A stretch of 64,000 bases of DNA from an uncultured Actinomycetota bacterium (GTDB lineage Bacteria > Actinomycetota > Actinomycetes > Propionibacteriales > Nocardioidaceae). Where the stretch lies: the NCBI GenBank assembly GCA_963712935.1, contig CAVQJX010000016.1, positions 14,350 to 78,349 on the forward strand, given 5' to 3'. Of the stretch, positions 21,778 through 48,078 are shown piece after piece. Position 1 is the first letter of the stretch. The number at the start of each line of letters is the position of its first letter. A program made the translations under genes and the position numbers. A model generated the notes under the pieces. The model was not told the origin of the DNA. It made no database searches and saw only the letters and a program-made list of their open reading frames with translations.

Positions 21778-23268
21778 ATGAGCACATCCCAGCTTTCCGA
21801 CGAGAGCCAGCCCTCGACCCGACCCGGCCTCCGCCGGGGCCTGTCGGTCTGGGCAGCGGTGGGTATCTCGGTCGCGCTGATGGCCCCGAGCATGGCGGCC
21901 AACATCAACCCGCAGGGCACCGCCGGACTGGTCGGCCGGGCCACACCACTGGCGTTCTTCCTGGCTGCGGTGGCGGTGCTGCTCATCGCTTACGTCTTCG
22001 TCCGGCTCTGCCAGTACTACAAGCACGCGGGCTCGGTCTATGTCTTCGCTGGCGCGACGCTGGGGCCGCAGGTGGGGGCCACGGCCGGCTTGTCGCTGCT
22101 GGCGACGTACACGTTCTACGGGCTCGTCACCGCTTCCGCGACGGGTGTGTTCGGCGCGCAGTTCCTCGACCAGATAGGCGCCTGGAACGCCCCACCCGAC
22201 TGGGCGGGCTTCCTCATCGGCGGCCTGGCACTGCTGCTCGTGCTCGTGCTGGCCATCGCGCCGACGCACCGCGCGACCAGCACCCTGCTCACCATCGAGG
22301 GAGCGACCGTGCTGCTCATCGTTGCGATCGCAGTCATTGCGTTCGTCAAGATGGCGGCGGGTTCTGCGCCCGACGACGCCAGCCTGACCTGGGACGTGTT
22401 CAAGGTCGAGCCGGGCACGGGCACGTCGACCCTCTTCCTCGGCATCATCTTCGGGTTGTTGTCGTTCGCCGGATTCGAGGCGGCTGCCACGCTGGGCGAG
22501 GAGGCTCGCAACCCGGCCAAGGACATCCCGCGCGCGATCCTCGGTACTGCGATCTTCGGCGGCATCTACTTCACGTTCGTGACGGCCGTGGAGATGATGG
22601 CGTTCGGAACCGACAAGGCAGGGGTCGAGGCCTTCACCACGTCGAGCGCCCTGATGGGCGACGTCGGTACGGCGTTCATCGCGTCCTGGATCGGGGAAAC
22701 CATCACGTTGGGAGCGGCCATCAGTGCCTTCGGCTGCTGCCTGGCCTGTGTGGTCGGCGGCTCGCGCCTGCTGTTCGCCGTGTCCCGTGACGGCTTCCCG
22801 CACCTGCCGACCGGGCAGACGGGCCGCAACGGGACGCCCGCCGCCGCAGCAACGGCCGTGAGTGTCGCCATCGCCGTGATCGCGCTCATCTGCGCGGTGC
22901 TCTTCGGCGCGGTTCCGTTCGACACGTTCCTGTGGAGCGGCACCATCGGGACCTTGATCCTGCTGGTGGCCTATGTGCTCGCCACTATCGGGTGCATCAA
23001 GTTGCTCTTCATCGACAAGGCCATGAAGGTGCCGGCCTGGGAGATCGTGATCCCGTTGGCCGGCCTGGTGATGCTGGGCTACACGATCTACCGCAACGTC
23101 ATCCCGTATCCCACGTCGGGGCCGGCGATGTGGTTCCCGATCGTGGCGTTCGGCTGGGTGATCGTGGTGGCCATCGTGATGCTGTTGTCGCCCGTATTGG
23201 CGCAGCGGCTGTCGCGAGCACTGGTCCAGGTCGACAAGGTGGACAAGCCGGAAGGACACTACCTCTGA
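21778..23268 (+). CDS. APC superfamily amino acid/polyamine permease
   Basis: ATG at 21778 after ACGAGGTGA. 496 aa with about 12 TM helices. N-terminus GLSVWAAVGISVALMAPSMA is typical. Confidence 0.8.
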   Translation: MSTSQLSDESQPSTRPGLRRGLSVWAAVGISVALMAPSMAANINPQGTAGLVGRATPLAFFLAAVAVLLIAYVFVRLCQYYKHAGSVYVFAGATLGPQVGATAGLSLLATYTFYGLVTASATGVFGAQFLDQIGAWNAPPDWAGFLIGGLALLLVLVLAIAPTHRATSTLLTIEGATVLLIVAIAVIAFVKMAAGSAPDDASLTWDVFKVEPGTGTSTLFLGIIFGLLSFAGFEAAATLGEEARNPAKDIPRAILGTAIFGGIYFTFVTAVEMMAFGTDKAGVEAFTTSSALMGDVGTAFIASWIGETITLGAAISAFGCCLACVVGGSRLLFAVSRDGFPHLPTGQTGRNGTPAAAATAVSVAIAVIALICAVLFGAVPFDTFLWSGTIGTLILLVAYVLATIGCIKLLFIDKAMKVPAWEIVIPLAGLVMLGYTIYRNVIPYPTSGPAMWFPIVAFGWVIVVAIVMLLSPVLAQRLSRALVQVDKVDKPEGHYL

Positions 23269-24453
23269 ATGACGACCGGCCGACCAGAACAGTCCCGCGG
23301 CTACACCCCTCGCACCCGTCCCGTCGTCCCGCCGATCCACACGTCGGTCACGTACTTCCTCGACGACGAGTCCTACAAGGACGTCCAGGCAGGCGGCCTC
23401 GACGAGATCTGGTACGGGCGTTTCCGCAACCCCACGGTCGATGTGGCGGCCGAGGAGGTGCGTCGGCTGGAGGGAGCTGAGGCTGCGTTCATGACCTCCT
23501 CGGGCATGGGCGCGATCGCCACCACGCTCCTCACCCTGTTGCGCCGCGGCGACCGGCTCGTCGCTGCGACGCAGGTGTACGGCGACACCCGTGACCTCCT
23601 GGTCCGGGACCTCCCGTCGTGGGGGTTCGACGTCGTCCAGGTGGATGCGGCCGACCTGGACGCCTGGCGCGACGCGATCGTCGGTGGGCAGACCCGGGTG
23701 CTCTACGTCGAGACGCTCGCCAACCCGCAGCTCGAGCTGGCCGATCTCATGGCGCTGGCCGCGTTGGCGCATGAGCACGGGGCGCAGCTCGTCGTGGACA
23801 ACACGTTCGCGACGCCCTACTGCGTGCAGCCGCTCGACGTCGGCGCGGACGTCGTCGTCCACTCGGCGACGAAGTTCCTCAACGGTCACAGCGACGCCAT
23901 CGCGGGTGCTGTCGTCGGGTCATACGACCTGGTACGTGAGGTGCAGCGTCGGGTCATCACGCTGGGCACCTGCCTCGACCCGCACACCGCCTTTCTGGTG
24001 TGGCGGGGCATGCAGACGTTCGAGCTTCGTATGCGTCAGTCGATGGCGACGGCCCGTCGGCTCGCGCAGACATTGAGTGAGCATCCGGACGTGATCGGTG
24101 TCCGATACCCGGGGCTGGCCGGTGACCCGCGCGCTGAGGTCGCAGACCGTCTGCTCCGACGGGATGCAGATGGCAGCGTGCGGGCCGGGGCGATGGTGGC
24201 CTTCACCGTTGCGGGCGGTGATGACCGAGCGCTGCGAGCCATGCGGGCGATGACCGTCGCGTGTGAGGCCACCAGCCTCGGTGGCGTCGAGACCCTGGTC
24301 AGTACGCCGTTCAACTCCTCGCACTTCTCGCTCACCCCGGAAGAACGCACGGCCGCCCGCATCGACGACGGCATGATCCGCCTGTCGTGCGGGGTCGAGC
24401 CGGCCGAGGCACTGATTGCCGACGTCGTGGCAGCGCTTGAAGGGACTCGCTGA
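23269..24453 (+). CDS. PLP-dependent Cys/Met metabolism enzyme (cystathionine gamma-synthase/lyase, methionine gamma-lyase family)
   Basis: 394 aa. PLP-lysine motif HSATKFLNGHSD. Family-typical YGRFRNPT and SLGGVETL. Confidence 0.85.
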   Translation: MTTGRPEQSRGYTPRTRPVVPPIHTSVTYFLDDESYKDVQAGGLDEIWYGRFRNPTVDVAAEEVRRLEGAEAAFMTSSGMGAIATTLLTLLRRGDRLVAATQVYGDTRDLLVRDLPSWGFDVVQVDAADLDAWRDAIVGGQTRVLYVETLANPQLELADLMALAALAHEHGAQLVVDNTFATPYCVQPLDVGADVVVHSATKFLNGHSDAIAGAVVGSYDLVREVQRRVITLGTCLDPHTAFLVWRGMQTFELRMRQSMATARRLAQTLSEHPDVIGVRYPGLAGDPRAEVADRLLRRDADGSVRAGAMVAFTVAGGDDRALRAMRAMTVACEATSLGGVETLVSTPFNSSHFSLTPEERTAARIDDGMIRLSCGVEPAEALIADVVAALEGTR

Positions 24454-25577
24454 TGCACGGGCCGCTCGAGCACGTCACCCTTCCGCTCGTCGACCACCAC
24501 TGCCACGGGTTGGTACGCCGGGACGTGGACCGCCCCGGGTTCGAGGGCCTGCTCAACGAGGCGCCCGGCGCCAGCGCTCTCGGCACCTCGGTGTTCGACT
24601 CGATGCTCGGCCTAGCCGTCCGGCGGCACTGCGCTCCGCTGCTCGACCTCGAACCCCTCGTCGACCCGGACAGCTACCTCCGTCGGCGTACCGAGCTGGG
24701 GCGCGACGAGACCTCACGCCGGATGTTGTCGGCCGCGGGCATCGCCGACTTCATCGTCGACACGGGATACGTTCCCGAACCGATCACGGACCCTGCGGCG
24801 CTGGCGACCCTCGCCGGAGACGCCCGGGGCCACGAGATCATCCGTCTCGAGGTGGTCGGGCAAGACCTCCTCGCTGCCGGCATCCGGCCAGTGGACTTCG
24901 GGGAGGCGTTGCGCGAGCGGCTGAAGGCCTCGGGGGCGGTCGGCGCGAAAAGCATCGCGGCCTACCGGGTGGGGCTTGCGCTACCTGGCGAGCGACCCTC
25001 GGACGATGAGCTGGCGGCCGCGTTGACGGGCGTGGCAGCGGATGCGTCAGGTGCCTTCCGGATCGCCCATCCCGTCGTCAACGGGTACCTCGCCTGGACG
25101 GCCATCGAGCTCGGCATGCCACTGCAGTTCCATGTGGGATACGGCGACAGCGACGTCGACCTCCTCGACTGCGACCCGCTGCGGCTGACCCCCTTCCTCC
25201 GCGCGACGCAGGATTGTGGCGTCCCGGTCCTGCTGCTGCACAACTACCCGTTCCACCGCAACGCGAGCTATCTGGCCCAGGTCTTCGATCACGTCTTCAT
25301 GGACGTCGGGCTGGCGGTGCACAACACCGGTGCGCTGTCGCGGGCGCTGATCGCCGAAAGCCTCGAGCTGGTGCCGTTCGGCAAGATGCTGTTCTCGTCC
25401 GACGCGTTCGGGCTACCGGAGCTCTACCTGCTCGGGGCGATGCTGTTCCGTCAGGGACTCGACGAGGTGCTGACGTCGTTGGTCGAACGCGGTGAGATGG
25501 GTCGCGCCGACGCCGACCGCATCGCCGGGCTGATCTGCGCCGAGAACGCCCGTCGCGTGTACCGGCTAGCGGGCTGA
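24453..25577 (+). CDS. amidohydrolase family protein (metal-dependent hydrolase)
   Basis: 374 aa. N-terminal VDHHCHG metal-binding motif. Start is coupled to the upstream stop. Confidence 0.6.
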   Translation: MHGPLEHVTLPLVDHHCHGLVRRDVDRPGFEGLLNEAPGASALGTSVFDSMLGLAVRRHCAPLLDLEPLVDPDSYLRRRTELGRDETSRRMLSAAGIADFIVDTGYVPEPITDPAALATLAGDARGHEIIRLEVVGQDLLAAGIRPVDFGEALRERLKASGAVGAKSIAAYRVGLALPGERPSDDELAAALTGVAADASGAFRIAHPVVNGYLAWTAIELGMPLQFHVGYGDSDVDLLDCDPLRLTPFLRATQDCGVPVLLLHNYPFHRNASYLAQVFDHVFMDVGLAVHNTGALSRALIAESLELVPFGKMLFSSDAFGLPELYLLGAMLFRQGLDEVLTSLVERGEMGRADADRIAGLICAENARRVYRLAG

Positions 25578-25598
25578 CCGGGAGGGACGGGACACGCC

Positions 25599-26495
25599 AT
25601 GACTCCGGTCCGGTCCCGAGCGACGCTGTCGGATCCCACCGTCCTCTGGGTCCTGGCTGCGCTCGCCATGGTCGCCTTCGCGGCGAACTCCGTGCTGAAC
25701 CGCCTCGCACTGGACGGCGACGCCATCGATGCCGGGACCTTCACCCTGGTGCGGCTGGCGTCTGGGGCGGTCGTGCTCACGGCGCTCGCGCTCCCGTTGG
25801 CGAAGGGGGCGACACAGCCCCGGCGGGCAGCCGGGTCGTGGCAGTCGGCGGGTCTGCTGCTCGTGTACGCCGCCACGTTCTCGTACTCCTACCTCAGCCT
25901 GGGTGCGGCCACCGGCGCGCTGCTCATGTTCACCGTGGTGCAGGCGGTGATGTTCACGGCCGCGATCCGGTCGGCTGAGCATCCCGGTGTAGCCGGGTGG
26001 TCCGGCCTGGCCTTGGCCCTCGCGGGTCTGCTGCTGCTGCTGGCTCCCGGTGCGAAGTCGCCCGACCCGGTCGGCGCCGTCCTGATGGTGTGCGCCGGGG
26101 TCGCGTGGGCGGGGTACACGCTCCGCGGCCGCGCGCTGGGCAACCCGATCGCCGTCAACGCAGGGAACTTCCTCCGGAGCGTACCGATGGCGGTGGTGCT
26201 GTACGTGGTCCTCATCGCCGTAGACAGGCCGGGCGTGCACGCGAGTCTGCACGGGATAGTGCTGGCCGTCCTGTCCGGCGCGGTGGCCTCGGGGCTGGGC
26301 TACGCGCTCTGGTACACGGTGCTGCCCTTCCTCACCCGCGTGCAGTCCGGCATCGTGCAGCTCGCGCCTCCACCGATCGCTGCGATCGCCGGGCTGCTGA
26401 TCCTGAGCGAGCCGATCACGGTGCGGGTGCTGGCGGCTACGGTTCTCGTCTTCGGCGGTGTCATCATCGGGCTGCGGCGGCGGTCGGCGACCTGA
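25599..26495 (+). CDS. DMT superfamily (EamA-like) transporter
   Basis: 298 aa, about 10 TM helices, duplicated EamA-like halves. Confidence 0.75.
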   Translation: MTPVRSRATLSDPTVLWVLAALAMVAFAANSVLNRLALDGDAIDAGTFTLVRLASGAVVLTALALPLAKGATQPRRAAGSWQSAGLLLVYAATFSYSYLSLGAATGALLMFTVVQAVMFTAAIRSAEHPGVAGWSGLALALAGLLLLLAPGAKSPDPVGAVLMVCAGVAWAGYTLRGRALGNPIAVNAGNFLRSVPMAVVLYVVLIAVDRPGVHASLHGIVLAVLSGAVASGLGYALWYTVLPFLTRVQSGIVQLAPPPIAAIAGLLILSEPITVRVLAATVLVFGGVIIGLRRRSAT

Positions 26496-26566
26496 CCGGA
26501 CAACGTGCGTGTGAGCGCTGGACGCGGAGCGGCGGGAGTCGCCGGGCCGCTGGGTAGGCTTGCCGG

Positions 26567-28003
26567 GTGACGAAGTCGCGGAGCGGTTCGGGTGTGCGAG
26601 GTACAACCGAGGGAGTCAGCGAGCCTGCCGACCTGATGGTCATCTTCGGGATCACCGGCGACCTCGCACACAAGATGACCTTCCATGCTCTGTACCGGTT
26701 GGAGCGAAGGGGGCTGCTTGACTGCCTCATCGTCGGGGTGGCGGCCGATGAGCTTTCCACCGCTGACCTGGTGGAGCGGGCCAAGACCGCCATCGGGGAG
26801 TCCGGGGAGCAGCTCGATCAGGCGGTCTTCGATCGGCTCGCAGCTCGGCTGTCCTACCTGCACGGAGACGTCACGGATCCCTCGTTGTACAAGGAGCTCG
26901 CCGCGCAGATGGGGGACCACCGCCGGCCGTTGTTCTATCTGGAGATGCCGCCGTCGCTGTTCGGCCCGATCGTCGAACAGCTCGCGGCAGCAGACCTGCT
27001 CGAGGGTGCCCGGGTCGCCGTCGAGAAGCCGTTCGGCCATGACCTGACCTCCGCCCGGGAGCTGGACGCTCGGCTGCACCAGGTACTCAGCGAGGAACAG
27101 ATCCTTCGGGTGGACCACTTCCTCGGCAAGGAACCCGTCATCGAGCTGGAGTACCTGCGCTTTGCCAACCTGGCGCTGGCGGAGCTCTGGGACCGCAAGA
27201 GCGTGTCGTGCATCCAGATCACCATGGCCGAGAACTTCGGTGTCGAGGATCGCGGCTCGTTCTACGACGCTGTGGGGGCGCTTCGCGACGTCGTCCAGAA
27301 CCACCTGCTGCAGGTGCTCGCGCTGGTGGCCATGGAGCCTCCGGCCGGCGCCAGCTCCGCGGAGCTGCGGGACAAGAAGGCCGAAGTGTTCAAGGCGATG
27401 CCGGCCGTCGACCCGCAGCACTGCGTGCGCGGACAATACGACGGCTACGCCGACGTCCCCGGCGTCGCGGCCGGGTCGTCGACGGAGACGTTCGTCGCCC
27501 TGCGCCTGGAGATCGACAACTGGCGCTGGGCCGGTGTGCCGATCTTCCTGCGTGCGGGCAAGGCGATGGCCGAGTCGGTGACCGAGGTGCGGCTCTTCCT
27601 CCGCCGCACGCCGCCGCTCACGTTCCTCCCGACGCCTACCCAGGTCGAGCCCAACCAGATCGTGCTGCGGATCGACCCACAGCCGGGTCTGCAGCTCCAG
27701 CTCGCCACCCGCGGTGACGGCTCCTGGCGGCCGGTCCGGCTCGAGAACCTCTTCGCTGAGGAGCTCGGCGAGCCACGGGAGCCCTACGAACGTCTGCTGC
27801 GTGCCGCACTCGTCGGCGACTCGGGGCTGTTCGCACGCGAGGACAGCGTCGAGGAGACCTGGCGGATCGTGCAACCGCTCCTGGACCACCCACCGATGGT
27901 CCGCTCCTACGAGCAAGGTTCCTGGGGACCCGCGACTGCGGACGAGCTGCTTCGCGGGCATCCGCGCTGGCAGCACCCGTGGGTCGCGGTGGGCTCGCCA
28001 TGA
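26567..28003 (+). CDS. zwf: glucose-6-phosphate 1-dehydrogenase
   Basis: VIFGITGDLAHKM NADP motif and active-site RVDHFLGKE. 478 aa. Confidence 0.9.
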   Translation: MTKSRSGSGVRGTTEGVSEPADLMVIFGITGDLAHKMTFHALYRLERRGLLDCLIVGVAADELSTADLVERAKTAIGESGEQLDQAVFDRLAARLSYLHGDVTDPSLYKELAAQMGDHRRPLFYLEMPPSLFGPIVEQLAAADLLEGARVAVEKPFGHDLTSARELDARLHQVLSEEQILRVDHFLGKEPVIELEYLRFANLALAELWDRKSVSCIQITMAENFGVEDRGSFYDAVGALRDVVQNHLLQVLALVAMEPPAGASSAELRDKKAEVFKAMPAVDPQHCVRGQYDGYADVPGVAAGSSTETFVALRLEIDNWRWAGVPIFLRAGKAMAESVTEVRLFLRRTPPLTFLPTPTQVEPNQIVLRIDPQPGLQLQLATRGDGSWRPVRLENLFAEELGEPREPYERLLRAALVGDSGLFAREDSVEETWRIVQPLLDHPPMVRSYEQGSWGPATADELLRGHPRWQHPWVAVGSP

Positions 28004-28431
28004 CCATCGACGTGCGCCCGACCGTGGTCGTGCACCGGCGGCGTCCAGACGTAGCGGCGTACATGTTCGACCCGACGCGCGACCTGGAGTGGACGGGCGG
28101 CATCACGGCGAGCCGACCCGCCCAGCACGGCCTTCTGGTCGAGGGCGCGACGGTCGAGCGGGACGCTCGCTTCATGGGCCGGCGCTTCACCTACGGTTAC
28201 GCGGTGACGGCGTACGAGCCGGACCGGCTGGCCGAGCTCGAGGTCGCACGCCCCTTCCCGATGCTGGTCAGGTATGAGCTGGAGGACCATCCCGAAGGCA
28301 CGCTCGTGGCGATCCATGCGCACGGTGACCCGGGCCGGTTCTTCGGCTGGGCTTCGCCACTGATGCGGCGGGCCGTGGCCAAGAACATCCGCGCCGACCT
28401 CGCCCGCCTCCGCGCCCGGCTCGAGGCCTGA
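28000..28431 (+). CDS. SRPBCC (polyketide cyclase/START-like) family protein
   Basis: ATGA overlap with the zwf stop. 143 aa. General SRPBCC pattern (DPTRDLEWTGGI). Confidence 0.55.
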   Translation: MTIDVRPTVVVHRRRPDVAAYMFDPTRDLEWTGGITASRPAQHGLLVEGATVERDARFMGRRFTYGYAVTAYEPDRLAELEVARPFPMLVRYELEDHPEGTLVAIHAHGDPGRFFGWASPLMRRAVAKNIRADLARLRARLEA

Positions 28432-28452
28432 CGCCTCACAGCCGCAGGTGGC

Positions 28453-30186
28453 TCACAGCCAGTGGGTGAGCCACATCCGATCGTTCCACTGCTGGTTGGT
28501 GAGCAGCTTGTCGGTGAGGATCGGGTAGAAGTAAACGAAGTTCAGCGCGACGAGACCGACGAAGACACCGACGGCGATGTTGCCGACCAGCCGCCGCTGG
28601 TATGACGCACCGGCCGGGGCCATGATCTTGCCGAGCACGAGCGCCACGCAGATGACGGTGAACGGGATGATCGCCACCCCGTAGTAGTAGAAGATCGGTC
28701 GCGTGTCGTAGCGAAGCCACGGCAACCAGGTGGTGAGGACTCCGACGAGGGGTATGCCGAACCGCCAGTCGCGGCGACTCACCCAGTAGCCGAAGCCGAT
28801 GAACAGCGCGAAGACCCCGCCCCACCACAGCACCGGTGTGCCGATGGCCAGCACCTGTTTGACGCAGCTCTCGCCCTCAGGGCAGTTGGGGATCTTCGTG
28901 TTGTCCCCGCTGGTCGCCGCGATGCCGAGTGGTCGGTTGATGACGAGCCAGCCGCCGGGGTTGGACTGGAACGGGTGCGTCGCCTCGTTGATGTAGTCGC
29001 TGGTGTGGAACTTGTAGACCTCGATGTTGTAGTTCCACAAGATGTTGAGGTCGTGCCGGACGTGGCCGAGCCAGGTCGTCGGGTGGTCGTCGACCGAGCT
29101 CCAGACGACGTCGGCCTGGCCCGTGTCGTGACCGAAGGCGTCCTCGAACTTCTGCGCGTGGGTGAGGAAGCCCATCCAGGACACGATGTAGACGAGCACA
29201 CTCACCACGAAGATCGTGAAGAAGGCCGGGATCATGTCGGCGACGAGCGACTTCAATGGCGCCCCCTTGACGCCGATGGCCCGCCGGAGACCGGAGTCCC
29301 AGGCCCACACCAGCACCACGAACCCGGCAAGGACGAAGACGGTCGTCCACTTGGTGCCCAGCGCGAGGCCGAAACACACACCGGCCGCGATCCGCCAGGG
29401 CCGGAGGATCAAACCTCGGATCGGGCCGAAATCCCGGGCCGACCGGAGCGGCGTCATCTCGAACTGCCGGGCCATCTTCGCGCGGGCCCAGTCGCGGTCC
29501 GCCACCAGACAGTGGACCGCGCAGAGCAGCCAGAACGCCAGGAAGATGTCGAGCAGCGCGAACCGCGACATCACGAAGTGCAGGCCGTCCAGTGCCAGCA
29601 GAGCTCCGGCCACGCACCCGAGCAGCGTCGAGCCGGTCAGTCTTCGGACCAGGCGGCACATCACGAGCACCATCAGCGTCCCGGTCAGCGCAGCGGAGAA
29701 ACGCCAGCCGAGCGGAGTCAGACCGAAGATCCATTCGCCCGCAGCGATCATCCACTTCCCGACCTCGGGGTGGACCACCTTGCTCGGGGTGTCGAGGAAC
29801 AGGTCGGCCGGCTTGGTGTCGCCGGAGTTGATGAGCGCGTCGGCCTCGCTGGCGTCGGTCTGCGGGTCGTTGACGAACGACATCGCATAGCCCTTGACGA
29901 GCAGCGAGTAGGCGTCCTTGGCGTAGTACGTCTCGTCGAAGGTGATGTCGTGCGGCGTGGACAGGCTCCAAAACTGGAGGATGCCGGCGCAGAGCGTGAC
30001 CGCGAGCGGGGCGACCCAGCCCCAGAACGCGTTGCTCCGGTACGACGGTGGGGTGAACCGGCGGCGAAGCCGGGGCAGTCCCTCACCGTCGATGGTCTTG
30101 CCCAGCAGCGTGACCGCACCGCCCTCGGAGCCGAGCGGGGGTGCGTCGCCCGTCGGGGCGTGGGTCGTCGTCGCCACGGTGGTCAT
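28453..30186 (-). CDS. pmt: dolichyl-phosphate-mannose protein O-mannosyltransferase (PMT family)
   Basis: ATG at 30186. 577 aa polytopic membrane protein with the FDETYYAKDAYSL loop motif. Divergent from rsmI, as for Rv1002c/Rv1003. Confidence 0.85.
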   Translation of the reverse strand: MTTVATTTHAPTGDAPPLGSEGGAVTLLGKTIDGEGLPRLRRRFTPPSYRSNAFWGWVAPLAVTLCAGILQFWSLSTPHDITFDETYYAKDAYSLLVKGYAMSFVNDPQTDASEADALINSGDTKPADLFLDTPSKVVHPEVGKWMIAAGEWIFGLTPLGWRFSAALTGTLMVLVMCRLVRRLTGSTLLGCVAGALLALDGLHFVMSRFALLDIFLAFWLLCAVHCLVADRDWARAKMARQFEMTPLRSARDFGPIRGLILRPWRIAAGVCFGLALGTKWTTVFVLAGFVVLVWAWDSGLRRAIGVKGAPLKSLVADMIPAFFTIFVVSVLVYIVSWMGFLTHAQKFEDAFGHDTGQADVVWSSVDDHPTTWLGHVRHDLNILWNYNIEVYKFHTSDYINEATHPFQSNPGGWLVINRPLGIAATSGDNTKIPNCPEGESCVKQVLAIGTPVLWWGGVFALFIGFGYWVSRRDWRFGIPLVGVLTTWLPWLRYDTRPIFYYYGVAIIPFTVICVALVLGKIMAPAGASYQRRLVGNIAVGVFVGLVALNFVYFYPILTDKLLTNQQWNDRMWLTHWL

Positions 30187-30226
30187 CGTAGGCGAGTCTG
30201 CTGGATGCGCCTGCGATGATGCCGAC

Positions 30227-31054
30227 ATGACACTCGTTCTGGCGGCGACGCCGATCGGCCGGATCGAGGACGCTCCGCCGCGGCTGGCGACGGAGCTCGC
30301 CTCCGCGGACGTGATCGCAGCCGAGGACACCCGTCGGCTGCGGCGGCTGCTGGGAGAGCTCGGGGTCGAGACTTCGGCGCGGGTGGTGTCGTACTTCGAG
30401 GGCAACGAGGTCGCTCGTACGTCGGGCCTGGTGGAGGCCCTGGTCGCCGGTGAACGCGTCGTGCTGGTGACCGATGCCGGTATGCCCAGCGTCTCCGACC
30501 CGGGCTACCGGCTCGTGTCAGCGGCGGTGGCTGCGGGCGTCGAGGTCACGGCGGTGCCGGGGCCGTCCGCGGTCCTGATGGCTCTCGCGGTCTCGGGCCT
30601 GCCGGTCGACCGGTTCTGCTTCGAGGGCTTCCTGCCGCGCAAGTCCGGTGAGCGGCGCCGACGGTTGGCCGAGCTGGCCGACGAGCCGCGCACGATGGTG
30701 TTCTTCGAGGCGCCGCATCGCACCGCCGAGTCGTTGCTGGCGATGGGGGAGGCGTTCGGGCCCGAGCGTGCGGTGGCGGTGTGTCGCGAGCTGACCAAGA
30801 CCTATGAGGAGGTACGCCGCGGCAGCCTTGCCGACGTCAGCGCCTGGGCAGCTGACGGAGTCCGGGGCGAGGTCACGATCGTCGTCGACGGTGCGCCGGC
30901 CATGCCTCCAGCCGAGCTCGACGCCGACCAGCTGCGCTCGCTCGTCGATGCTGCCGCGGCCGACGGGTTGTCCCGCAAGGACGCGGTGTCCCAGGTGGCG
31001 GCCCGGACCGGCATCCCCCGCAAGACCGTCTACGCCGCCGCCCACTCTCGTTGA
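30227..31054 (+). CDS. rsmI: 16S rRNA (cytidine1402-2'-O)-methyltransferase
   Basis: ATG at 30227. LVLAATPIGRIEDAPPRL..IAAEDTRR, DAGMPSVSDPG and FEAPHR motifs. Confidence 0.9.
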   Translation: MTLVLAATPIGRIEDAPPRLATELASADVIAAEDTRRLRRLLGELGVETSARVVSYFEGNEVARTSGLVEALVAGERVVLVTDAGMPSVSDPGYRLVSAAVAAGVEVTAVPGPSAVLMALAVSGLPVDRFCFEGFLPRKSGERRRRLAELADEPRTMVFFEAPHRTAESLLAMGEAFGPERAVAVCRELTKTYEEVRRGSLADVSAWAADGVRGEVTIVVDGAPAMPPAELDADQLRSLVDAAAADGLSRKDAVSQVAARTGIPRKTVYAAAHSR

Positions 31055-31140
31055 GCCGTGAGTTGTTGGGCTGTTGAGCCGTGAGTTGTGGTCCGTTGAG
31101 CCGTGAGTTGTGGCTCCTCGAGCCGTGGGTTTGGTACCGC
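31050..31140. repeat. 22-23 bp tandem direct repeat, three perfect 17-nt cores plus one degenerate copy
   Basis: GTTGAGCCGTGAGTTGT at 31050, 31073 and 31095. Degenerate TCGAGCCGTGGGTTTGG at 31118. The first copy contains the rsmI stop codon. Confidence 0.9.
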
Positions 31141-31181
31141 GCTAGCGTGAAATGCGAACGCGCGACCTCGAAGGGAGCCCC

Positions 31182-32054
31182 ATGGAGATCGGCCTGCACG
31201 TCTCGGACTTCACCTGGCCCGGCGGCCCGGACACGCTCGCCGACGACCTCACCCGGGTGGTGACGACGGCCGACGACCTCGGGTTCGCGCGGATCAGCGT
31301 GATGGATCACGTCTGGCAGATCGGTGTCAACGGGCCGCCCGAGGGGCCGATGCTCGAGGCGTACACCGCTCTGGGCTTCATCGCGGCCCGGACCTCCCGC
31401 GTACGGCTTCTCGCCTGGGTGACCGCCGTCGTCTACCGGGAGCCAGGCATGCTGGCCAAGCTCGTGAGCACGCTCGACGTGCTGTCGAAGGGCCGCGCCT
31501 GGCTCGGCGTCGGTGCCGCGTGGAACGAGGACGAAGCACGCGGCCTCGGGTTGCCCTTCCCACCGACCGCCGAGCGTTTCGAGCGGCTCGAAGAGGCCGT
31601 GCAGATCTGTCAGCAGATGTGGAGTGCTGACGACGGCCCGTATGCCGGCCGGCACTACCAGCTGACCCGGACGCTCAACTCGCCACAGCCGATCAGCAGG
31701 CCGCACCCACCGATCCTCATCGGCGGCGGTGGCGAGAAGAAGACGCTGCGCCTCGTCGCGCAGTACGCGCAGGCCTGCAACCTCTTCGACAGTCCCGAAC
31801 TGGCCCACAAGCTCGAGGTGCTGCGAGCCCACTGCGACGCGGTTGGCCGCGACTACGACGACATCGAGAAGACGGTGATGCTGCGGCTCGACCCCGGCGA
31901 GCACGGTGAGCACGTCGACACGCTGCTCGAGGACCTGCACCGGCTGTCCGAGCTCGGCGTCGCCGAGACTCACGGCAAGGTTCCCCATGTCTCCGACCTC
32001 AAGCGGCTGGAGATCCTCGGTGATCGGGTGATCCCGGTGGCCGCCGCCTTCTGA
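31182..32054 (+). CDS. LLM class F420-dependent oxidoreductase (Rv1855c-like)
   Basis: ATG at 31182 after GAAGGGAG. ISVMDHVWQIG, LDVLSKGRAWLGVGAAWNEDE and PPILIGGGGEKKTLRLVA are typical of luciferase-like monooxygenase family proteins. Confidence 0.8.
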   Translation: MEIGLHVSDFTWPGGPDTLADDLTRVVTTADDLGFARISVMDHVWQIGVNGPPEGPMLEAYTALGFIAARTSRVRLLAWVTAVVYREPGMLAKLVSTLDVLSKGRAWLGVGAAWNEDEARGLGLPFPPTAERFERLEEAVQICQQMWSADDGPYAGRHYQLTRTLNSPQPISRPHPPILIGGGGEKKTLRLVAQYAQACNLFDSPELAHKLEVLRAHCDAVGRDYDDIEKTVMLRLDPGEHGEHVDTLLEDLHRLSELGVAETHGKVPHVSDLKRLEILGDRVIPVAAAF

Positions 32055-33864
32055 GCTACCCGCACGTCGTCCGTGGGCCGGCGAAACCGGCTCGACGCGG
32101 CCCCTAGGATTGGGGCCATGCCCGACAGCCCCGCCAAGGCGTTCTACGTCACCACGCCGATCTACTACGTGACGGCCCCGCCCTCCATCGGCAACGCATA
32201 CACGACGGTCGCTGCCGACGTCCTGGCACGGTGGCACCGGCAGATGGGTGAGGACGTCGTCTTCCTGACGGGTACCGACGAGCACGGCCAGAAGGTCCTC
32301 GAGGCAGCCGAAGAACACGGTGTGACGCCGCAGGAGTGGGCCGACCGGCTCGTCGAGACCGAGTGGCAGCCTGTCCTTTCGGTGATCGACGCCAGCAACG
32401 ACGACTTCATCCGTACGACGGAGCCACGCCACACCGAGCGGGTGCAGGAGTTCTGGCAGGCCGTCTACGACGCGGGTGACGTCTACGAGGGCAGCTACGA
32501 AGGGCCGTACTGCATCTCGTGTGAGGAGTTCAAGCTGCCGTCCGAGCTGCTCGACGGCAACGAGGGCCAGAAGCTGTGCCCTATCCACGAGCGACCCGTC
32601 GAGACGCTGTCGGAGGTCAACTACTTCTTCGCCCTGAGCAAGTACGCCGATCGGCTGCTCGCGCTGTACGAGGACGAGCCCACGTTCGTGCAGCCCGACA
32701 GTGCGCGCAACGAGGTCATCTCGTTCGTGCGGCAGGGGCTGCAGGACCTGTCGATCTCGCGCTCGACCTTCGACTGGGGGATCCCGGTGCCGTGGGACGA
32801 GAAGCACGTCTTCTACGTGTGGATCGACGCGCTGCTCAACTACGCGACCGCGGCGGGCTTCGGGACCGACCCGGAGCGGTTCGCCCGCATCTGGCCGGCT
32901 GACGTGCAGCTCGTCGGCAAGGACATCCTGCGCTTCCACGCGGTCATCTGGCCGGCCATGCTGATGGCGGCCGGCGTCGACGTACCGCGGCGGGTCTTCG
33001 CGCACGGCTGGCTGCAGGTCGGCGGTCAGAAGATGAGCAAGTCCAAGGCGACGGCCATCCATCCGAGCGAGATCGTCGACACGTTCGGCTCGGACGCCTA
33101 CCGCTACTACTTCACGCGGACGATCTCCTTCGGCTCCGACGGCAGCTTCTCGTGGGAGCACATGAGCGCGGTCTACACGAGTGAGCTCGCGAACGGGCTG
33201 GGCAACCTCGCTTCGCGGGTCACCGCGATGGTGGGCAAGTACTTCGACGGGGTTCTGCCGGAGCAGGGTGCGCAGGGTCCCGCCGAACTGGCCCTGGCCG
33301 ACGCGCTTGCCGCAGCCGCCCGTACCGCCGACGACGCGATCGAGCGGGTGGCGATCCATGAAGCGGTGGGTGCGGTCGCCGACTTCGTGGGATTGGTCAA
33401 CGGCTACGTCACCGAGCAGGAGCCATGGAAGGTGGCCAAGGACGACAGCCCGGCCGGCCAACGGCGCCTGGCGACGATCCTGTACGCCGCTGCCGAGTCG
33501 CTGCGCGGCGTGGCGGTGCTGCATCACGCGGTGATGCCGCGCACCGCGGCCGCATTGTGGGCGGCCCTCGGCGCTGACGCCATCGGACCGCTGGCCGATC
33601 AACGCATCGCCGAGGTCGGGACGTGGGGCCAGCTGCCTGCAGGAGCGATGTTGACCAAGGGCGCGTCGCTGTTCCCCCGGATCGACACGGTGGAGGCAGG
33701 GCCTGGGGGCGCCGCTCGATGAGCGGCCCGCTGCGGGCGCGCGCAGGTGACGACGAGACGGGCCGTCGGGACGTGACCCGGCCACCGCTGCCAGATCCGC
33801 TGCCGAGTCCGGTCGTCGACAACCACTGTCATCTCGACATCGCGGATGGCGACGGGTGGTTGGA
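31379..33864 (+). repeat. tandem duplication, copy A (LLM 3' part + metG + first 146 nt of tatD)
   Basis: Aligned directly by eye with 33865..36348. The offset is 2486 nt, then 2484 nt after two 1-nt gaps. Confidence 0.95.
32118..33722 (+). CDS. metG: methionine--tRNA ligase, copy 1
   Basis: ATG at 32118. YVTTPIYYVTAPPSIGNAYT (HIGH-region equivalent), KMSKS motif QKMSKSKATAI, CxxC knuckle. 534 aa. Confidence 0.95.
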   Translation: MPDSPAKAFYVTTPIYYVTAPPSIGNAYTTVAADVLARWHRQMGEDVVFLTGTDEHGQKVLEAAEEHGVTPQEWADRLVETEWQPVLSVIDASNDDFIRTTEPRHTERVQEFWQAVYDAGDVYEGSYEGPYCISCEEFKLPSELLDGNEGQKLCPIHERPVETLSEVNYFFALSKYADRLLALYEDEPTFVQPDSARNEVISFVRQGLQDLSISRSTFDWGIPVPWDEKHVFYVWIDALLNYATAAGFGTDPERFARIWPADVQLVGKDILRFHAVIWPAMLMAAGVDVPRRVFAHGWLQVGGQKMSKSKATAIHPSEIVDTFGSDAYRYYFTRTISFGSDGSFSWEHMSAVYTSELANGLGNLASRVTAMVGKYFDGVLPEQGAQGPAELALADALAAAARTADDAIERVAIHEAVGAVADFVGLVNGYVTEQEPWKVAKDDSPAGQRRLATILYAAAESLRGVAVLHHAVMPRTAAALWAALGADAIGPLADQRIAEVGTWGQLPAGAMLTKGASLFPRIDTVEAGPGGAAR

Positions 33865-33907
33865 CATCGCGGCCCGGACTTCCCGCGTACGGCTTCTCGC
33901 TGGGTGA
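33719..33907 (+). pseudogene. duplication-junction chimera: tatD codons 1-49 fused in frame to the LLM oxidoreductase interior, then truncated
   Basis: MSGPLRARAGDDETGRRDVTRPPLPDPLPSPVVDNHCHLDIADGDGWL(D) followed by IAARTSRVRLLA from LLM. A 1-nt gap relative to copy A (GCCTGG -> GCTGG) creates TGA at 33905. Confidence 0.85.
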
Positions 33908-33916
33908 CGCCGTCGT

Positions 33917-34538
33917 CTACCGGGAGCCAGGCATGCTGGCCAAGCTCGTGAGCACGCTCGACGTGCTGTCGAAGGGCCGCGCCTGGCTCGGCGTCGGTGC
34001 CGCGTGGAACGAGGACGAAGCACGCGGCCTCGGGTTGCCCTTCCCACCGACCGCCGAGCGTTTCGAGCGGCTCGAAGAGGCCGTGCAGATCTGTCAGCAG
34101 ATGTGGAGTGCTGACGACGGCCCGTATGCCGGCCGGCACTACCAGCTGACCCGGACGCTCAACTCGCCACAGCCGATCAGCAGGCCGCACCCACCGATCC
34201 TCATCGGCGGCGGTGGCGAGAAGAAGACGCTGCGCCTCGTCGCGCAGTACGCGCAGGCCTGCAACCTCTTCGACAGTCCCGAACTGGCCCACAAGCTCGA
34301 GGTGCTGCGAGCCCACTGCGACGCGGTTGGCCGCGACTACGACGACATCGAGAAGACGGTGATGCTGCGGCTCGACCCCGGCGAGCACGGTGAGCACGTC
34401 GACACGCTGCTCGAGGACCTGCACCGGCTCTCCGAGCTCGGCGTCGCCGAGACTCACGGCAAGGTTCCCCATGTCTCCGACCTCAAGCGGCTGGAGATCC
34501 TCGGTGATCGGGTGATCCCGGTGGCCGCCGCCTTCTGA
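33917..34538 (+). pseudogene. 3' fragment of LLM F420-dependent oxidoreductase (duplicate, lacks its own start and N-terminal 80 codons)
   Basis: From VVYREPGMLAKL to the stop, the protein is identical to 31182..32054. I found one silent nt difference. It is out of frame with the junction ORF because of two 1-nt gaps. Confidence 0.85.
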
Positions 34539-34601
34539 GCCACCCGCACGTCGTTCGTGGGCCGGCGAAACCGGCTCGACGCGGCCCCTAGGATTGGGGC
34601 C

Positions 34602-36206
34602 ATGCCCGACAGCCCCGCCAAGGCGTTCTACGTCACCACGCCTATCTACTACGTGACGGCCCCGCCCTCCATCGGGAACGCGTACACGACCGTCGCTGCC
34701 GACGTCCTGGCACGTTGGCACCGGCAGATGGGTGAGGACGTCGTCTTCCTGACGGGTACGGACGAGCACGGCCAGAAGGTCCTGGAGGCAGCTGAAGAAC
34801 ACGGTGTGACGCCCCAGGAGTGGGCCGACCGGCTCGTCGAGACCGAGTGGCAGCCCGTCCTTTCGGTGATCGACGCCAGCAACGACGACTTCATCCGTAC
34901 GACGGAGCCACGCCACACCGAGCGGGTGCAGGAGTTCTGGCAGGCCGTCTACGACGCGGGCGACGTCTACGAGGGCAGCTACGAAGGGCCGTACTGCATC
35001 TCGTGCGAGGAGTTCAAGCTGCCGTCTGAGCTGCTCGACGGCGACGAGGGCCAGAAGTTGTGCCCCATCCACGAGCGACCCGTCGAGACGCTGTCGGAGG
35101 TCAATTACTTCTTCGCCCTGAGCAAGTACGCCGACCGGCTGCTCGCGCTGTACGAGGACGAGCCCACGTTCGTGCAACCCGAGAGCGCACGCAACGAGGT
35201 CATCTCGTTCGTGCGGCAGGGGCTGCAGGACCTGTCCATCTCGCGTTCGACCTTCGACTGGGGGATCCCGGTGCCGTGGGACGAGAAGCACGTCTTCTAC
35301 GTGTGGATCGACGCGCTGCTCAACTACGCGACCGCGGCCGGCTTCGGGACCGACCCGGAGCGGTTCGCCCGCATCTGGCCGGCTGACGTGCAGCTCGTCG
35401 GCAAGGACATCCTGCGTTTCCACGCCGTCATCTGGCCCGCGATGTTGATGGCGGCCGGCGTCGACGTACCGCGCCGGGTCTTCGCCCACGGCTGGCTGCA
35501 GGTCGGCGGTCAGAAGATGAGCAAGTCCAAGGCGACGGCCATCCACCCGAGCGAGATCGTCGACACGTTCGGCTCGGACGCCTACCGCTACTACTTCACG
35601 CGCACGATCTCCTTCGGCTCCGACGGCAGCTTCTCGTGGGAGCACATGAGCGCGGTCTACACGAGTGAGCTCGCGAACGGCCTGGGCAACCTCGCCTCGC
35701 GGGTTACCGCGATGGTCGGCAAGTACTTCGACGGGGTCCTGCCCGAGCCGGGCGAGCTGGGTCCCGCCGAGCTGGCCTTGGCCGACGGGCTTGCGGCAGC
35801 CGCCCGTACGGCCGACGACGCGATCGAGCGGGTCGCGATCCACGAAGCGGTGGGTGCGGTGGCCGACTTCGTGGGACTGGTCAACGGCTACGTCACCGAG
35901 CAGGAGCCATGGAAGGTGGCCAAGGACGACAGCCCGGCCGGCCAACGGCGCCTGGCGACGATCCTGTACGCCGCTGCGGAGTCGCTGCGTGGGGTGGCGG
36001 TGCTGCATCACGCGGTGATGCCGCGCACCGCGGCCGCATTGTGGGCGGCCCTCGGCGCCGACGCCATCGGGCCGCTGGCCGACCAACGCATCGCCACGGT
36101 CGGGACGTGGGGCCAACTGCCCGCGGGAGCCGTGTTGACCAAGGGCGCGTCCTTGTTCCCCCGGATCGACACGGTGGAGGCAGGGACCGAGAGCGCTGCT
36201 CGATGA
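34602..36206 (+). CDS. metG: methionine--tRNA ligase, copy 2
   Basis: Same length and motifs as copy 1. 11 aa differences read from the two translations, most of them in the C-terminal third. Confidence 0.95.
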   Translation: MPDSPAKAFYVTTPIYYVTAPPSIGNAYTTVAADVLARWHRQMGEDVVFLTGTDEHGQKVLEAAEEHGVTPQEWADRLVETEWQPVLSVIDASNDDFIRTTEPRHTERVQEFWQAVYDAGDVYEGSYEGPYCISCEEFKLPSELLDGDEGQKLCPIHERPVETLSEVNYFFALSKYADRLLALYEDEPTFVQPESARNEVISFVRQGLQDLSISRSTFDWGIPVPWDEKHVFYVWIDALLNYATAAGFGTDPERFARIWPADVQLVGKDILRFHAVIWPAMLMAAGVDVPRRVFAHGWLQVGGQKMSKSKATAIHPSEIVDTFGSDAYRYYFTRTISFGSDGSFSWEHMSAVYTSELANGLGNLASRVTAMVGKYFDGVLPEPGELGPAELALADGLAAAARTADDAIERVAIHEAVGAVADFVGLVNGYVTEQEPWKVAKDDSPAGQRRLATILYAAAESLRGVAVLHHAVMPRTAAALWAALGADAIGPLADQRIATVGTWGQLPAGAVLTKGASLFPRIDTVEAGTESAAR

Positions 36207-37135
36207 GTGGCCCCCTGCGGGCGCGTGCAGGTGAAGACGAGACGGGCCGTCGGGACGTGACCCGGCCACCGCTACCGGATCCACTGCCGAGTCCGGTCGT
36301 CGACAACCACTGTCATCTCGACATCGCGGATGGCGACGGGTGGTTGGAGCCGGCGGAGGCGCTCCGCTGGTCGGCCGAGGTCGGCGTCCCGCGCATCGTG
36401 CAGATTGGCTGCGACCTTCCCGGAGCCCGCTGGGCCGTCGAGACGGCGACGGCGTACGACGCGATCGTGGCCGGAGTGGCGATCCACCCGAACGAAGCGC
36501 CTCGGCTCGAGGCTGACGGCAGCCTCGACGCCGCGCTCGTGGAGATCGAGGAGCTGGTCACGTCGAGTCCGCGGGTGCGCGCCGTGGGGGAGACCGGCCT
36601 GGACTACTACCGGACCGGGCCCGAGGGTGTCGATGCGCAGCGGAGGTCGTTCGCGGCGCACATCGCGCTGGCGCACCGCCACGGGAGGGCGCTGGTCATC
36701 CACGACCGCGATGCGCACGACGACGTGCTGGCCATGCTCGACGAGCACGGGGTGCCGGAGCGGACCGTGCTGCACTGCTTCTCCGGTGACGAGGTGTTCG
36801 CGCGCGCCTGCCTGGATCGCGGCGCGTACCTGTCCTTCGCGGGGACGGTGACGTTCAAGAACGCGGCGCCGCTCCGGCGGGCGTTGGCGGTGGCTCCGTT
36901 GGACCGGATCCTGGTCGAGACCGACGCGCCGTACCTGACGCCGGTGCCCTTCCGCGGCCGGCCCAACGCGTCGTACCTGGTGCCCCACACGGTGCGCGCG
37001 ATGGCGGAGGTGCGGCAGGTGTCGCTCGAAGCGATGTGTACGGCGATCGACGCCAACACCGACGCCGCGTTCGGGGGGTCGTGGGGGACTGCCCAAGGCA
37101 AACCTGGAGCCAACAAGGGAAGTTTGCCTAGTTAA
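36203..37135 (+). CDS. tatD: TatD family metal-dependent DNase/hydrolase
   Basis: ATGA overlap with the metG stop. VVDNHCHLD, AVGETGLDYY, HCFSG and ETDAPYLTP motifs. Confidence 0.9.
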   Translation: MSGPLRARAGEDETGRRDVTRPPLPDPLPSPVVDNHCHLDIADGDGWLEPAEALRWSAEVGVPRIVQIGCDLPGARWAVETATAYDAIVAGVAIHPNEAPRLEADGSLDAALVEIEELVTSSPRVRAVGETGLDYYRTGPEGVDAQRRSFAAHIALAHRHGRALVIHDRDAHDDVLAMLDEHGVPERTVLHCFSGDEVFARACLDRGAYLSFAGTVTFKNAAPLRRALAVAPLDRILVETDAPYLTPVPFRGRPNASYLVPHTVRAMAEVRQVSLEAMCTAIDANTDAAFGGSWGTAQGKPGANKGSLPS

Positions 37136-48005: not shown

Positions 48006-48078
48006 TCCCCTGTGGGGTAACCCGGCAGCCCGCGAGCCTTTGAAGCTTGAGGTCCTGGATCGAAGCCAGGCAGGGGAG
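48006..48078 (+). tRNA. tRNA-Gln (anticodon UUG), no encoded CCA
   Basis: Folded by hand. Acceptor TCCCCTG/CAGGGGA with U1-A72 and discriminator G73. U8. D arm GGGT/GCCC with GG in the loop. Anticodon stem CGAGC/GCTTG, loop CTTTGAA. 4-nt variable loop. T arm CCTGG/CCAGG with loop ATCGAAG (A at position 54 is atypical). Confidence 0.75.

Follow-up and report, generated by a model that had tools for sequence, protein, structure and literature searches.

The window analysed here, a 64-kb stretch of an actinobacterial contig, carries a direct repeat that includes two complete methionyl-tRNA synthetase (MetRS) genes, metG. A preliminary description, made from the sequence alone, had reported a 2.48-kb tandem repeat in which positions 31379-33864 recur at 33865-36348, and local alignment bore out every detail of this claim. 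The two copies align over 2484 columns at 96.6% identity (84 mismatches), and single-base gaps open at 31414 and at 31423, where copy 2 lacks the base. The offset between the copies consequently passes from 2486 to 2485 and then to 2484, as had been described. The content of the unit was also as described: the 3′ part of a gene for an LLM-class oxidoreductase (from nt 228 of the ORF that begins at 31152), a spacer of 63 nt, the whole of metG and the 5′ end of tatD (146 nt). This pair of copies is the sole long repeat in the window, whose sequence contains no Ns, either at the joint between the copies (33864/33865) or elsewhere. The features of the locus are collected in Table 1.

Table 1. Features of the repeat region, with positions counted in the 64-kb window. 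L001-L005 are close relatives.
Feature	Position	Strand	Basis and remarks
LLM-class F420-dependent oxidoreductase gene, intact	31152..32054	+	TIGR03560 312 bits (cut-off 231); PF00296; also precedes metG in L001-L005
Repeat unit copy 1, 2486 nt	31379..33864	+	Local alignment
Divergent core of copy 1 (allele A)	31946..33799	+	83 differences from copy 2 and from L002/L003; identical 522 nt before and 65 nt after
metG copy 1, allele A, 534 aa	32118..33722	+	NF008900 639 bits; allele seen in this contig only; its SNPs include 32159G, 33265A and 33702C
tatD 5′ end, truncated, 146 nt	33719..33864	+	Frame crosses the joint to TGA 33905-33907
Novel joint, tatD nt 146 / LLM nt 228	33864..33865		No microhomology, no Ns; both frames joined in frame; L002/L003 alignments stop and start exactly there
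Repeat unit copy 2, 2484 nt	33865..36348	+	Local alignment
LLM gene 3′ fragment, non-functional remnant	33865..34538	+	TIGR03560 positions 74-227 only, below cut-off
Stretch adjoining the joint	33865..33908	+	C>T at 33880; two deletions of 1 nt, at 33900/33901 and 33908, both in CC runs; unique relative to copy 1, L002 and L003
metG copy 2, allele B, 534 aa	34602..36206	+	NF008900 637 bits; 1-3 nt from the single metG of GCA_049285195.1 and GCA_049589115.1
tatD, intact, 310 aa	36203..37135	+	TIGR00010 230 bits; PF01026; 310 aa in L001-L003

Both metG ORFs are intact and full length and their products differ at 11 residues, in agreement with the preliminary description. The assignment to MetRS relies on the NCBIfam equivalog NF008900 (cut-off 598 bits), which the two proteins match equally; they are 97.9% identical, and the nearest structures for both are of MetRS1. 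Of the catalytic motifs that had been claimed, KMSKS is present in both proteins and the one called HIGH-like reads SIGN. Comparison of the two genes gave a dS of 0.173 and a dN/dS of 0.058, the differences in the core of the repeat being mostly synonymous, and pairs of orthologues showed the same range of dN/dS (0.06-0.13). The amino acid differences are found at residues 148, 194, 383-396 and 499-531, and 8 of the 11 fall in columns that are also variable among orthologues. Judging from the alignments, it is variable columns of the CP, anticodon-domain and C-terminal regions that are affected, and the pocket appears to be left untouched. Nothing in the two predicted proteins suggests altered specificity or resistance to inhibitors.

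The preliminary description had proposed looking at the same locus in sister genomes. We found the LLM-metG-tatD-rpf-ksgA locus once per genome in all five close relatives, none of which has a near-identical second metG beside the first. When the comparison was extended to 166 related loci from genomes and JGI metagenomes, a near-identical second metG adjoining the first was seen in none of them. Two of the five close relatives, L002 and L003, are other assemblies of the same population as the contig, and they are 99.8-99.9% identical to copy 2 and to the right flank. The metG of copy 2 differs by 1 nt from the single metG of L003 and by 3 nt from that of L002, while the metG of copy 1 differs from both at the same ∼73 sites at which it differs from copy 2. 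The copies are thus not each other's closest relatives, copy 2 being far nearer to the single-copy genes of L002 and L003 than to copy 1. Polarization of the metG changes placed 35 on the lineage of copy 1 and 34 on that of copy 2; the latter, half of the differences, are common to the single-copy genomes L002 and L003. A sister species that is 93% identical, and also single-copy, is separated by a dS of 0.20-0.22, and the split between the two copies (dS 0.17) is almost that deep. Since copy 2 is almost the same as the single-copy genes, and since the changes are evenly shared between the two lineages, the alleles must have diverged long before these genomes did. The protein encoded by allele A occurs in one contig only among ∼15 billion proteins. 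The wider protein search gave no second sighting of it and returned a single 90% cluster, of 7 members. Among genome contigs, the best match to the locus is 95% identical.

If two copies diverge after a duplication, the differences should be spread roughly uniformly and be highest in the non-functional parts. This is not the pattern observed, and the mismatches are strongly clustered, a point absent from the preliminary description. The first 45 nt after the joint hold 3 changes between copies, the next 522 nt none, the core of 1854 nt (∼1.85 kb) 83 and the last 65 nt of the unit again none. At the rate of the core, 522 nt of identity in the duplicated LLM fragment has a probability of ∼7e-11, or 2e-10 if only synonymous sites are considered. 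The lack of differences over these 522 nt of a non-functional fragment indicates that the juxtaposition is recent and that the unit consists of a variable patch together with some conserved flank. Because the LLM fragment is identical over this length while the dS of metG is as high as stated above, the copies did not diverge in place. The sequence comparisons show that the repeat is made of two long-diverged alleles of a normally single-copy gene that came to lie side by side only recently.

We also examined the joint and its surroundings. Microhomology at the joint amounts to 0 nt and there are no repeats at the ends of the unit. An 8-mer, CATCGCGG, is found at the start of the unit and again 27 nt before its end; as a mechanism it was rejected, being 19 nt out of register with the joint and unremarkable in a generic test (P = 0.11). 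The three changes of the identical-flank region all fall within the first 45 of 567 nt (P ∼5e-4), and the other ∼17 kb comparable with L002 contain one indel, against three changes in the 45 nt past the joint. The first of the 1-nt deletions cuts off what would otherwise be an in-frame TatD-LLM chimera of 273 aa. A degenerate pattern of the junction had no match in the JGI metagenomes, a collection without close relatives of this population (the best is 90% identical).

The divergent core is one of several such patches. Similar ones are present elsewhere in the window, at 30676-31094 and 20493-21336, and the contigs of one relative break at them. Patches of 0.4-2 kb and of similar divergence are exchanged in the population, and imported patches make up ∼13% of the ∼17 kb comparable with L002. 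All the close relatives are metagenome-assembled genomes (MAGs), several of them from soil metagenomes assembled with Flye. The nearest relatives in ENA and NCBI are Microflora Danica MAGs, which were built by Flye --meta --nano-hq plus Medaka, and the proteins of the window show the same source pattern as these MAGs. From these similarities we infer that the contig probably originated from Flye and derives from a mixed-strain long-read assembly.

Taken with the comparative data, the pattern of differences favours the other possibility raised by the preliminary description, namely an artefact that merges two alleles. We put at about 0.6 the probability that the duplication is false and arose when the metagenome was assembled instead of in the cell, and the tandem metG pair is most likely not a real feature. 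The sample would have contained two subpopulations of one Nocardioidaceae species, with near-identical genomes around the locus, that differ by a recombination patch of ∼1.85 kb over metG, represented by alleles A and B, 4.5% apart. Instead of reporting one allele, the assembler would have put both in series, in the order left flank, LLM gene, metG(A) and tatD up to nt 146, followed by the LLM gene from nt 228, metG(B), tatD and right flank. The organism would then carry one copy of this metG, and no cell would contain the tatD and LLM fragments or the 33864/33865 joint. In such a case the three base errors past the joint would be unsupported consensus at a place where probably no read spans.

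Artefacts of this kind have been documented. Long-read metagenome assemblers can concatenate subpopulation-specific variants, and they also yield false direct repeats and SNVs or indels without read support (Trigodet et al., bioRxiv 10.1101/2025.04.22.649783). According to Ko et al. (2022, PMC9516828), heterotype false duplications arise where identical sequence borders divergent sequence, and the majority of false duplications lie next to a gap. As in the artefacts of both studies, the metG repeat places two alleles of one locus adjacent in one contig, its divergent core is bounded by identical sequence, the locus is single-copy in relatives, and the indels and the SNV beside the joint look unsupported. 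metaFlye, likely the class of assembler used here, is named as prone to such errors. The likeness, drawn from sequence alone, is imperfect: besides the variable region the metG unit takes in 65 and 565 nt of conserved flank, and it has no N gap between the metG copies. Some observations count against an artefact. We know of no particular operation of an assembler by which tatD nt 146 would be linked with LLM nt 228, the joint is free of the N run that false duplications mostly flank (Ko et al.), and a donor allele abutting the joint, with the other copy of resident type, is also expected from a duplication generated by recombination. Two simpler artefacts were considered and rejected. For a short-read De Bruijn bubble, the identical margins should match k-1, and those observed (right, 65 nt; left, 15 or 565 nt) do so for no usual k; a random chimeric read would require the same-orientation ligation of two fragments from one 5-kb locus, which is far too improbable per locus.

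The increase from one to two metG genes could also have occurred in the cell. A possible, though doubtful, reading is that the pair is real and that illegitimate integration of DNA from a diverged strain gave a soil actinobacterium a foreign allele of an essential synthetase gene beside its own; it is equally tentative that we would be looking at a heteroallelic merodiploid soon after its formation, with a scar of error-prone repair at the joint. The specific form of this idea that we regard as the strongest competitor, while still rather unlikely, is a one-step recombination between strains. A donor fragment of ∼2.5 kb, from a relative ∼4.5% divergent in the patch and spanning or cut at LLM nt 228-tatD nt 146, would be integrated either as an end-joined circle by a single homologous crossover (Campbell type) or by unequal interchromatid crossing-over. 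As a result, the donor allele (the core of copy 1) would abut the joint and the resident allele (copy 2) would stay intact. The sequence agrees with this model at several points: the allele-A tract does reach within 65 nt of the joint and copy 2 is of the resident type, the insert is readable as a single uninterrupted stretch of foreign DNA across the joint, with differences on both sides, and the joint itself is clean, one coding sequence meeting the other at single-base resolution. Neither metG ORF is disrupted, the population visibly swaps patches of this size and divergence, and the first deletion ends the would-be chimeric protein. Error-prone repair of a nearby break would fit the clustering of -1 frameshifts, but two deletions 8 nt apart plus a substitution resemble poor consensus more than a single repair event. 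Joints made by homology-facilitated illegitimate recombination usually have 3-10 nt of microhomology, unlike the metG joint. Tandem-duplication merodiploids that carry an essential gene in two versions are known products of transformation (Johnston et al. 2013, PMC3784515). The metG repeat resembles them in being a tandem pair of two such versions with donor-type DNA adjoining a novel joint. However, those pneumococcal duplications span 100-900 kb and require bordering repeats, which are IS-derived, whereas the metG unit is 2.5 kb long and has none. The model is further weakened by the occurrence of the structure in one contig only, with near-identical genomes being single-copy, and by the lack of any sign of functional difference between the alleles. 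In addition, 567 nt of near-perfect identity plus 96% over the rest should destabilise the pair, which recombination between the copies would remove unless it were very recent or selected. Were the model correct, each MetRS gene would keep its own upstream region and would be expected to be expressed.

Two other origins are much harder to reconcile with the data. Spontaneous tandem duplications are frequent in bacteria, and a B-B duplication could have been followed by replacement of the copy-1 core through homologous recombination with DNA of a diverged relative. A very recent duplication would account for the identity of the LLM part, and the frequency of imported patches fits the second step, but we consider this sequence of events improbable. 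It needs two rare events within a short time, and an imported tract that nearly fills the unit and ends within 65 nt of the joint is unaccounted for (a coincidence of ∼10%, by rough estimate); moreover, the three junction-proximal changes are left unexplained and the structure is without an independent sighting. Dosage-selected spontaneous tandem amplifications of Salmonella and E. coli likewise have a head-to-tail unit and a novel joint, but their copies begin identical and diverge evenly, whereas the divergence in metG predates the joint and is confined to the core. The least credible origin, to which we give almost no weight, is an old duplication selected for its second MetRS, in which gene conversion kept the LLM part identical. 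The preliminary description had suggested that a benefit of the second gene, in dosage, inhibitor tolerance or altered specificity, may explain its retention, and this suggestion found no support, the copies not having diverged in place. It is true that both genes are intact and under purifying selection, and that extra or variant aminoacyl-tRNA synthetase genes do give inhibitor resistance in other bacteria. Against it, the 34 copy-2 changes shared with L002 and L003 would require repeated precise losses, so that an ancient duplication with gene conversion is ruled out on phylogenetic grounds, and the dead LLM fragment should have decayed (∼73 differences expected, as estimated from dS, and 4 observed). 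The replacements, which seem to fall in variable columns away from the pocket, also speak against it, as does the type of the enzymes, given that the known resistance-conferring second MetRS genes are of type 2, different from the MetRS1 of both copies. The locus resembles the auxiliary inhibitor-resistant synthetases MetRS2/metS2 of Gram-positive pathogens and MupA/MupB IleRS in that a genome has one kind of aminoacyl-tRNA synthetase encoded twice; those second copies are deeply divergent and horizontally acquired, whereas the metG pair differs only at fast-evolving positions.

If the duplication is false, as we favour, the locus illustrates neatly how a public MAG can acquire a false gene duplication through strain microdiversity, and counts of synthetase paralogues and gene-family expansions in long-read MAGs would be misled by such cases. 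They could be flagged without reads by a signature that uses the sequence only, consisting of old alleles, a young joint, one copy that matches the relatives with a single copy, and an excess of errors in the bases next to the joint. A real duplication would show that recombination between strains can, in nature, give rise to a gene duplicate already 4.5% diverged at birth; even then, nothing in the predicted proteins indicates that the two enzymes differ in function.

Scans of the repeat unit for promoters and terminators and against Rfam gave nothing useful. In the relatives, the LLM oxidoreductase starts at the position equivalent to ATG 31182, which gives a protein of 290 aa. Two further ORFs were noted in the region: the 230-aa ORF that opens at ATG 33846 in the LLM remnant arises from the frame shifts, and the antisense ORF of 1803 aa at 30873-36284, which is without a Pfam match, is an artefactual frame of high-GC DNA that the repeat makes longer.

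Local alignment reproduced the head-to-tail repeat reported in a preliminary description of this locus, with 84 mismatches and two 1-nt gaps between the copies and an offset that passes from 2486 to 2485 and then to 2484 nt. No other long repeat occurs within the 64-kb window (68% G+C, 0 Ns). The gene content proposed for the unit was likewise borne out, including two full-length metG genes whose products differ at 11 residues and score 639 and 637 bits against the NCBI MetRS equivalog profile (cut-off, 598 bits).

Coordinates of the repeat and of other features (window positions, except for the L-numbered loci)
Feature	Position	Remarks
Copy 1	31379-33864	2486 nt
Copy 2	33865-36348	2484 nt
LLM-class F420-dependent oxidoreductase gene (LLM), last two-thirds		in repeat unit; TIGR03560
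LLM-metG spacer		in repeat unit; 63 nt
metG, copy 1 (allele A)	32118-33722	in repeat unit; whole, intact, 534 aa
metG, copy 2 (allele B)	34602-36206	in repeat unit; whole, intact, 534 aa
tatD, first 146 nt		in repeat unit; tatD ATG overlaps metG stop
Divergent core	31946-33799	1854 nt; 83 mismatches between copies (4.5%)
MetRS class-I signature, SIGN	32184-32195; 34668-34679	residues 23-26
tatD-LLM in-frame fusion	33719-33907	first 1-nt deletion makes TGA at 33905
230-aa ORF	33846-34538	out-of-frame ATG (33846) brought in frame with LLM remnant by the two deletions jointly
Further divergent patches	30676-31094; 20493-21336	~4% versus L002 and L007
22-nt tandem array	31049-31135	four units of CGTTGAGCCGTGAGTTGTGGTC; rsmI-LLM spacer
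Antisense ORF	30873-36284, minus strand	1803 aa; opposite LLM and the two metG genes
tRNA gene	48006-48078, plus strand	sole Rfam match in window
Second MetRS, examples	L019:987-2786; L070:492-2297; L025:4203-5879
Second MetRS, Kribbella or Kribbellaceae	e.g. L032:7679-9154	17 loci

Directly after the junction, 45 nt of copy 2 carry one C>T change and two 1-nt deletions. The next 522 nt are identical between the copies (P ~7e-11 at the rate of the divergent core; ~2e-10 for synonymous sites only), as are the final 65 nt of the unit. Within metG, 57 of the 73 differences fall at third codon positions, giving a dS of 0.173 and a dN of 0.010 (Nei-Gojobori). The truncated LLM piece of copy 2, a non-functional remnant, should have outpaced metG in divergence had the copies evolved side by side; 4 differences were observed where ~73 would be expected from the metG dS. 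Since the LLM piece is near-identical while metG has diverged, the junction is young and the metG alleles are old. The 1803-aa antisense ORF across this region has no Pfam match, and we rejected it as a gene because such stop-free antisense frames are typical of high-GC DNA and this one is lengthened by the repeat.

Sister genomes, which the preliminary description had proposed as a place to look for the duplication, do not carry it. The protein cluster at 90% that contains both copies has seven members, and the contigs of the other five all showed a single LLM-metG-tatD-rpf-ksgA locus. Two of these relatives, the MAGs L002 (GCA_049589115.1) and L003 (GCA_049285195.1), come from the same population and match copy 2 together with the right flank at 99.8-99.9% identity; for L002, identity to the left flank (21850-30675) reaches 99.94%. 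Their alignments end at 33864 and resume exactly at 33865. The metG of copy 2 lies 1 nt from L003 and 3 nt from L002, and copy 1 differs from both genomes at the same sites at which it differs from copy 2. Polarisation with three outgroups assigned 35 derived changes to the lineage of copy 1 and 34 to that of copy 2, the latter being common to the single-copy genomes. The split between alleles A and B (dS 0.17) is nearly as deep as the one that separates them from a sister species at 93% identity (dS 0.20-0.22), whose metG locus is also single. A near-identical adjacent metG was absent from all 80 loci examined in species-representative genomes and from all 80 in JGI metagenomes. We conclude that two long-separated alleles of one locus have been juxtaposed recently, either in the cell or in the assembler.

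The further divergent patches set the window apart from MAGs of the same population that are otherwise 99.9% identical, and contigs of GCA_049285195.1 break within rsmI at such a patch, which points to a population that is mosaic, strongly recombining or mixed. Given this visible mosaicism, a co-occurring strain differing solely by an imported 1.85-kb metG tract is entirely plausible. The 22-nt array also varies, with about one unit fewer in L001, another close relative, and a 1-nt indel plus four substitutions in L002 and L003.

The preliminary description had offered two explanations, a second MetRS kept because it is useful and an assembly artefact merging two alleles. The first can be ruled out for practical purposes. 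It would require repeated precise losses in the relatives and escape from decay of a dead gene fragment, and it predicts copies that are mutually closest, contrary to what we observed. The dN/dS between copies (0.058) matches that of orthologue pairs (0.06-0.13), and 8 of the 11 replacements, which sit in the connective-peptide region, where the anticodon-binding domain begins and in the C-terminal tail, occupy columns variable among the other five orthologues. Both copies are of the MetRS1 type (best solved relatives, 4dlp and 2x1l), whereas the resistance-conferring second MetRS genes known so far are of the other type. The sequences thus give no hint of functional divergence, and ancient functional paralogues are extremely improbable. 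The second explanation is favoured by the sequence pattern and the relatives; we regard an artefact of a known kind as the likeliest outcome (probability about 0.6). The duplicated unit consists of the variable patch plus a small conserved flank, as expected if the patch caused the duplication. Long-read metagenome assemblers can string together variants specific to different subpopulations, and they produce false direct repeats without any read support, as well as SNVs and indels backed by no read, the latter error being worst in metaFlye and metaMDBG, with which read-clipping events are also far more numerous than with other assemblers (Trigodet et al., bioRxiv 10.1101/2025.04.22.649783). 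Eukaryotic false duplications of the same class arise where identical meets divergent sequence (Ko et al., PMC9516828). The nearest relatives in ENA and NCBI are Microflora Danica MAGs, assembled with Flye (--meta --nano-hq) and Medaka; the window's proteins bear the same source signature, and the window probably shares that assembly origin. The three changes after the joint are absent from copy 1, L002 and L003, just one other indel occurs in ~17 kb of comparable sequence, and they would fit unsupported consensus beside an unspanned joint.

A real heteroallelic duplication would be the remaining reading, unlikely if formed by one-step recombination and considerably more so if two steps were needed. 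The joint is clean at single-base resolution, without Ns, no algorithmic step that we can name would yield it, and the adjoining donor-type tract is what illegitimate integration of a foreign fragment would leave. Transformation can yield tandem merodiploids with two versions of an essential gene (PMC3784515). The tatD and LLM frames are joined in frame, making a would-be 273-aa chimera that the first deletion ends; either selection or a 1-in-3 chance might account for this. Evidence against a real event is that bordering repeats and microhomology are absent, an 8-mer close to the joint is not in register with it (P = 0.11), near-identical genomes carry a single copy, and perfect identity over 567 nt would be expected to destabilise the pair. 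Nor was there an independent sighting: a degenerate junction pattern had no match in JGI metagenomes, and the allele-A protein was found on one contig only in a 15-billion-protein collection. Even if the pair were real, both enzymes would still look functionally equivalent.

The SIGN motif may merit more attention than the repeat. KMSKS is intact in both copies, as previously described, but the site termed HIGH-like reads SIGN in each, and aligns with PHIGH of 4dlp and 2x1l; a MetRS with neither histidine of HIGH is unusual. P-S-I-G-N/S is shared by every relative down to ~72% identity, among them cultured Solicola strains (Solicola gregarius), whereas Kribbella has HIGS, and Streptomyces, Embleya and Actinopolymorpha have HLGH or HIGH. 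Strong purifying selection acts on the gene. Of 87 metG-tatD loci examined, 20 have a second MetRS gene (~600 aa) no more than 6 kb away. Its product belongs to the archaeal/E. coli-like type (NF001100; identity 27-34%), with HIGH intact and KFSTS or KFSSS, the former also found in the Pyrococcus enzyme 1rqg. This type is absent within the 64-kb window and widespread in Nocardioidaceae, e.g. Nocardioides mesophilus. The presence of two MetRS types together seems to go with decay of HIGH in the MetRS1 copy.
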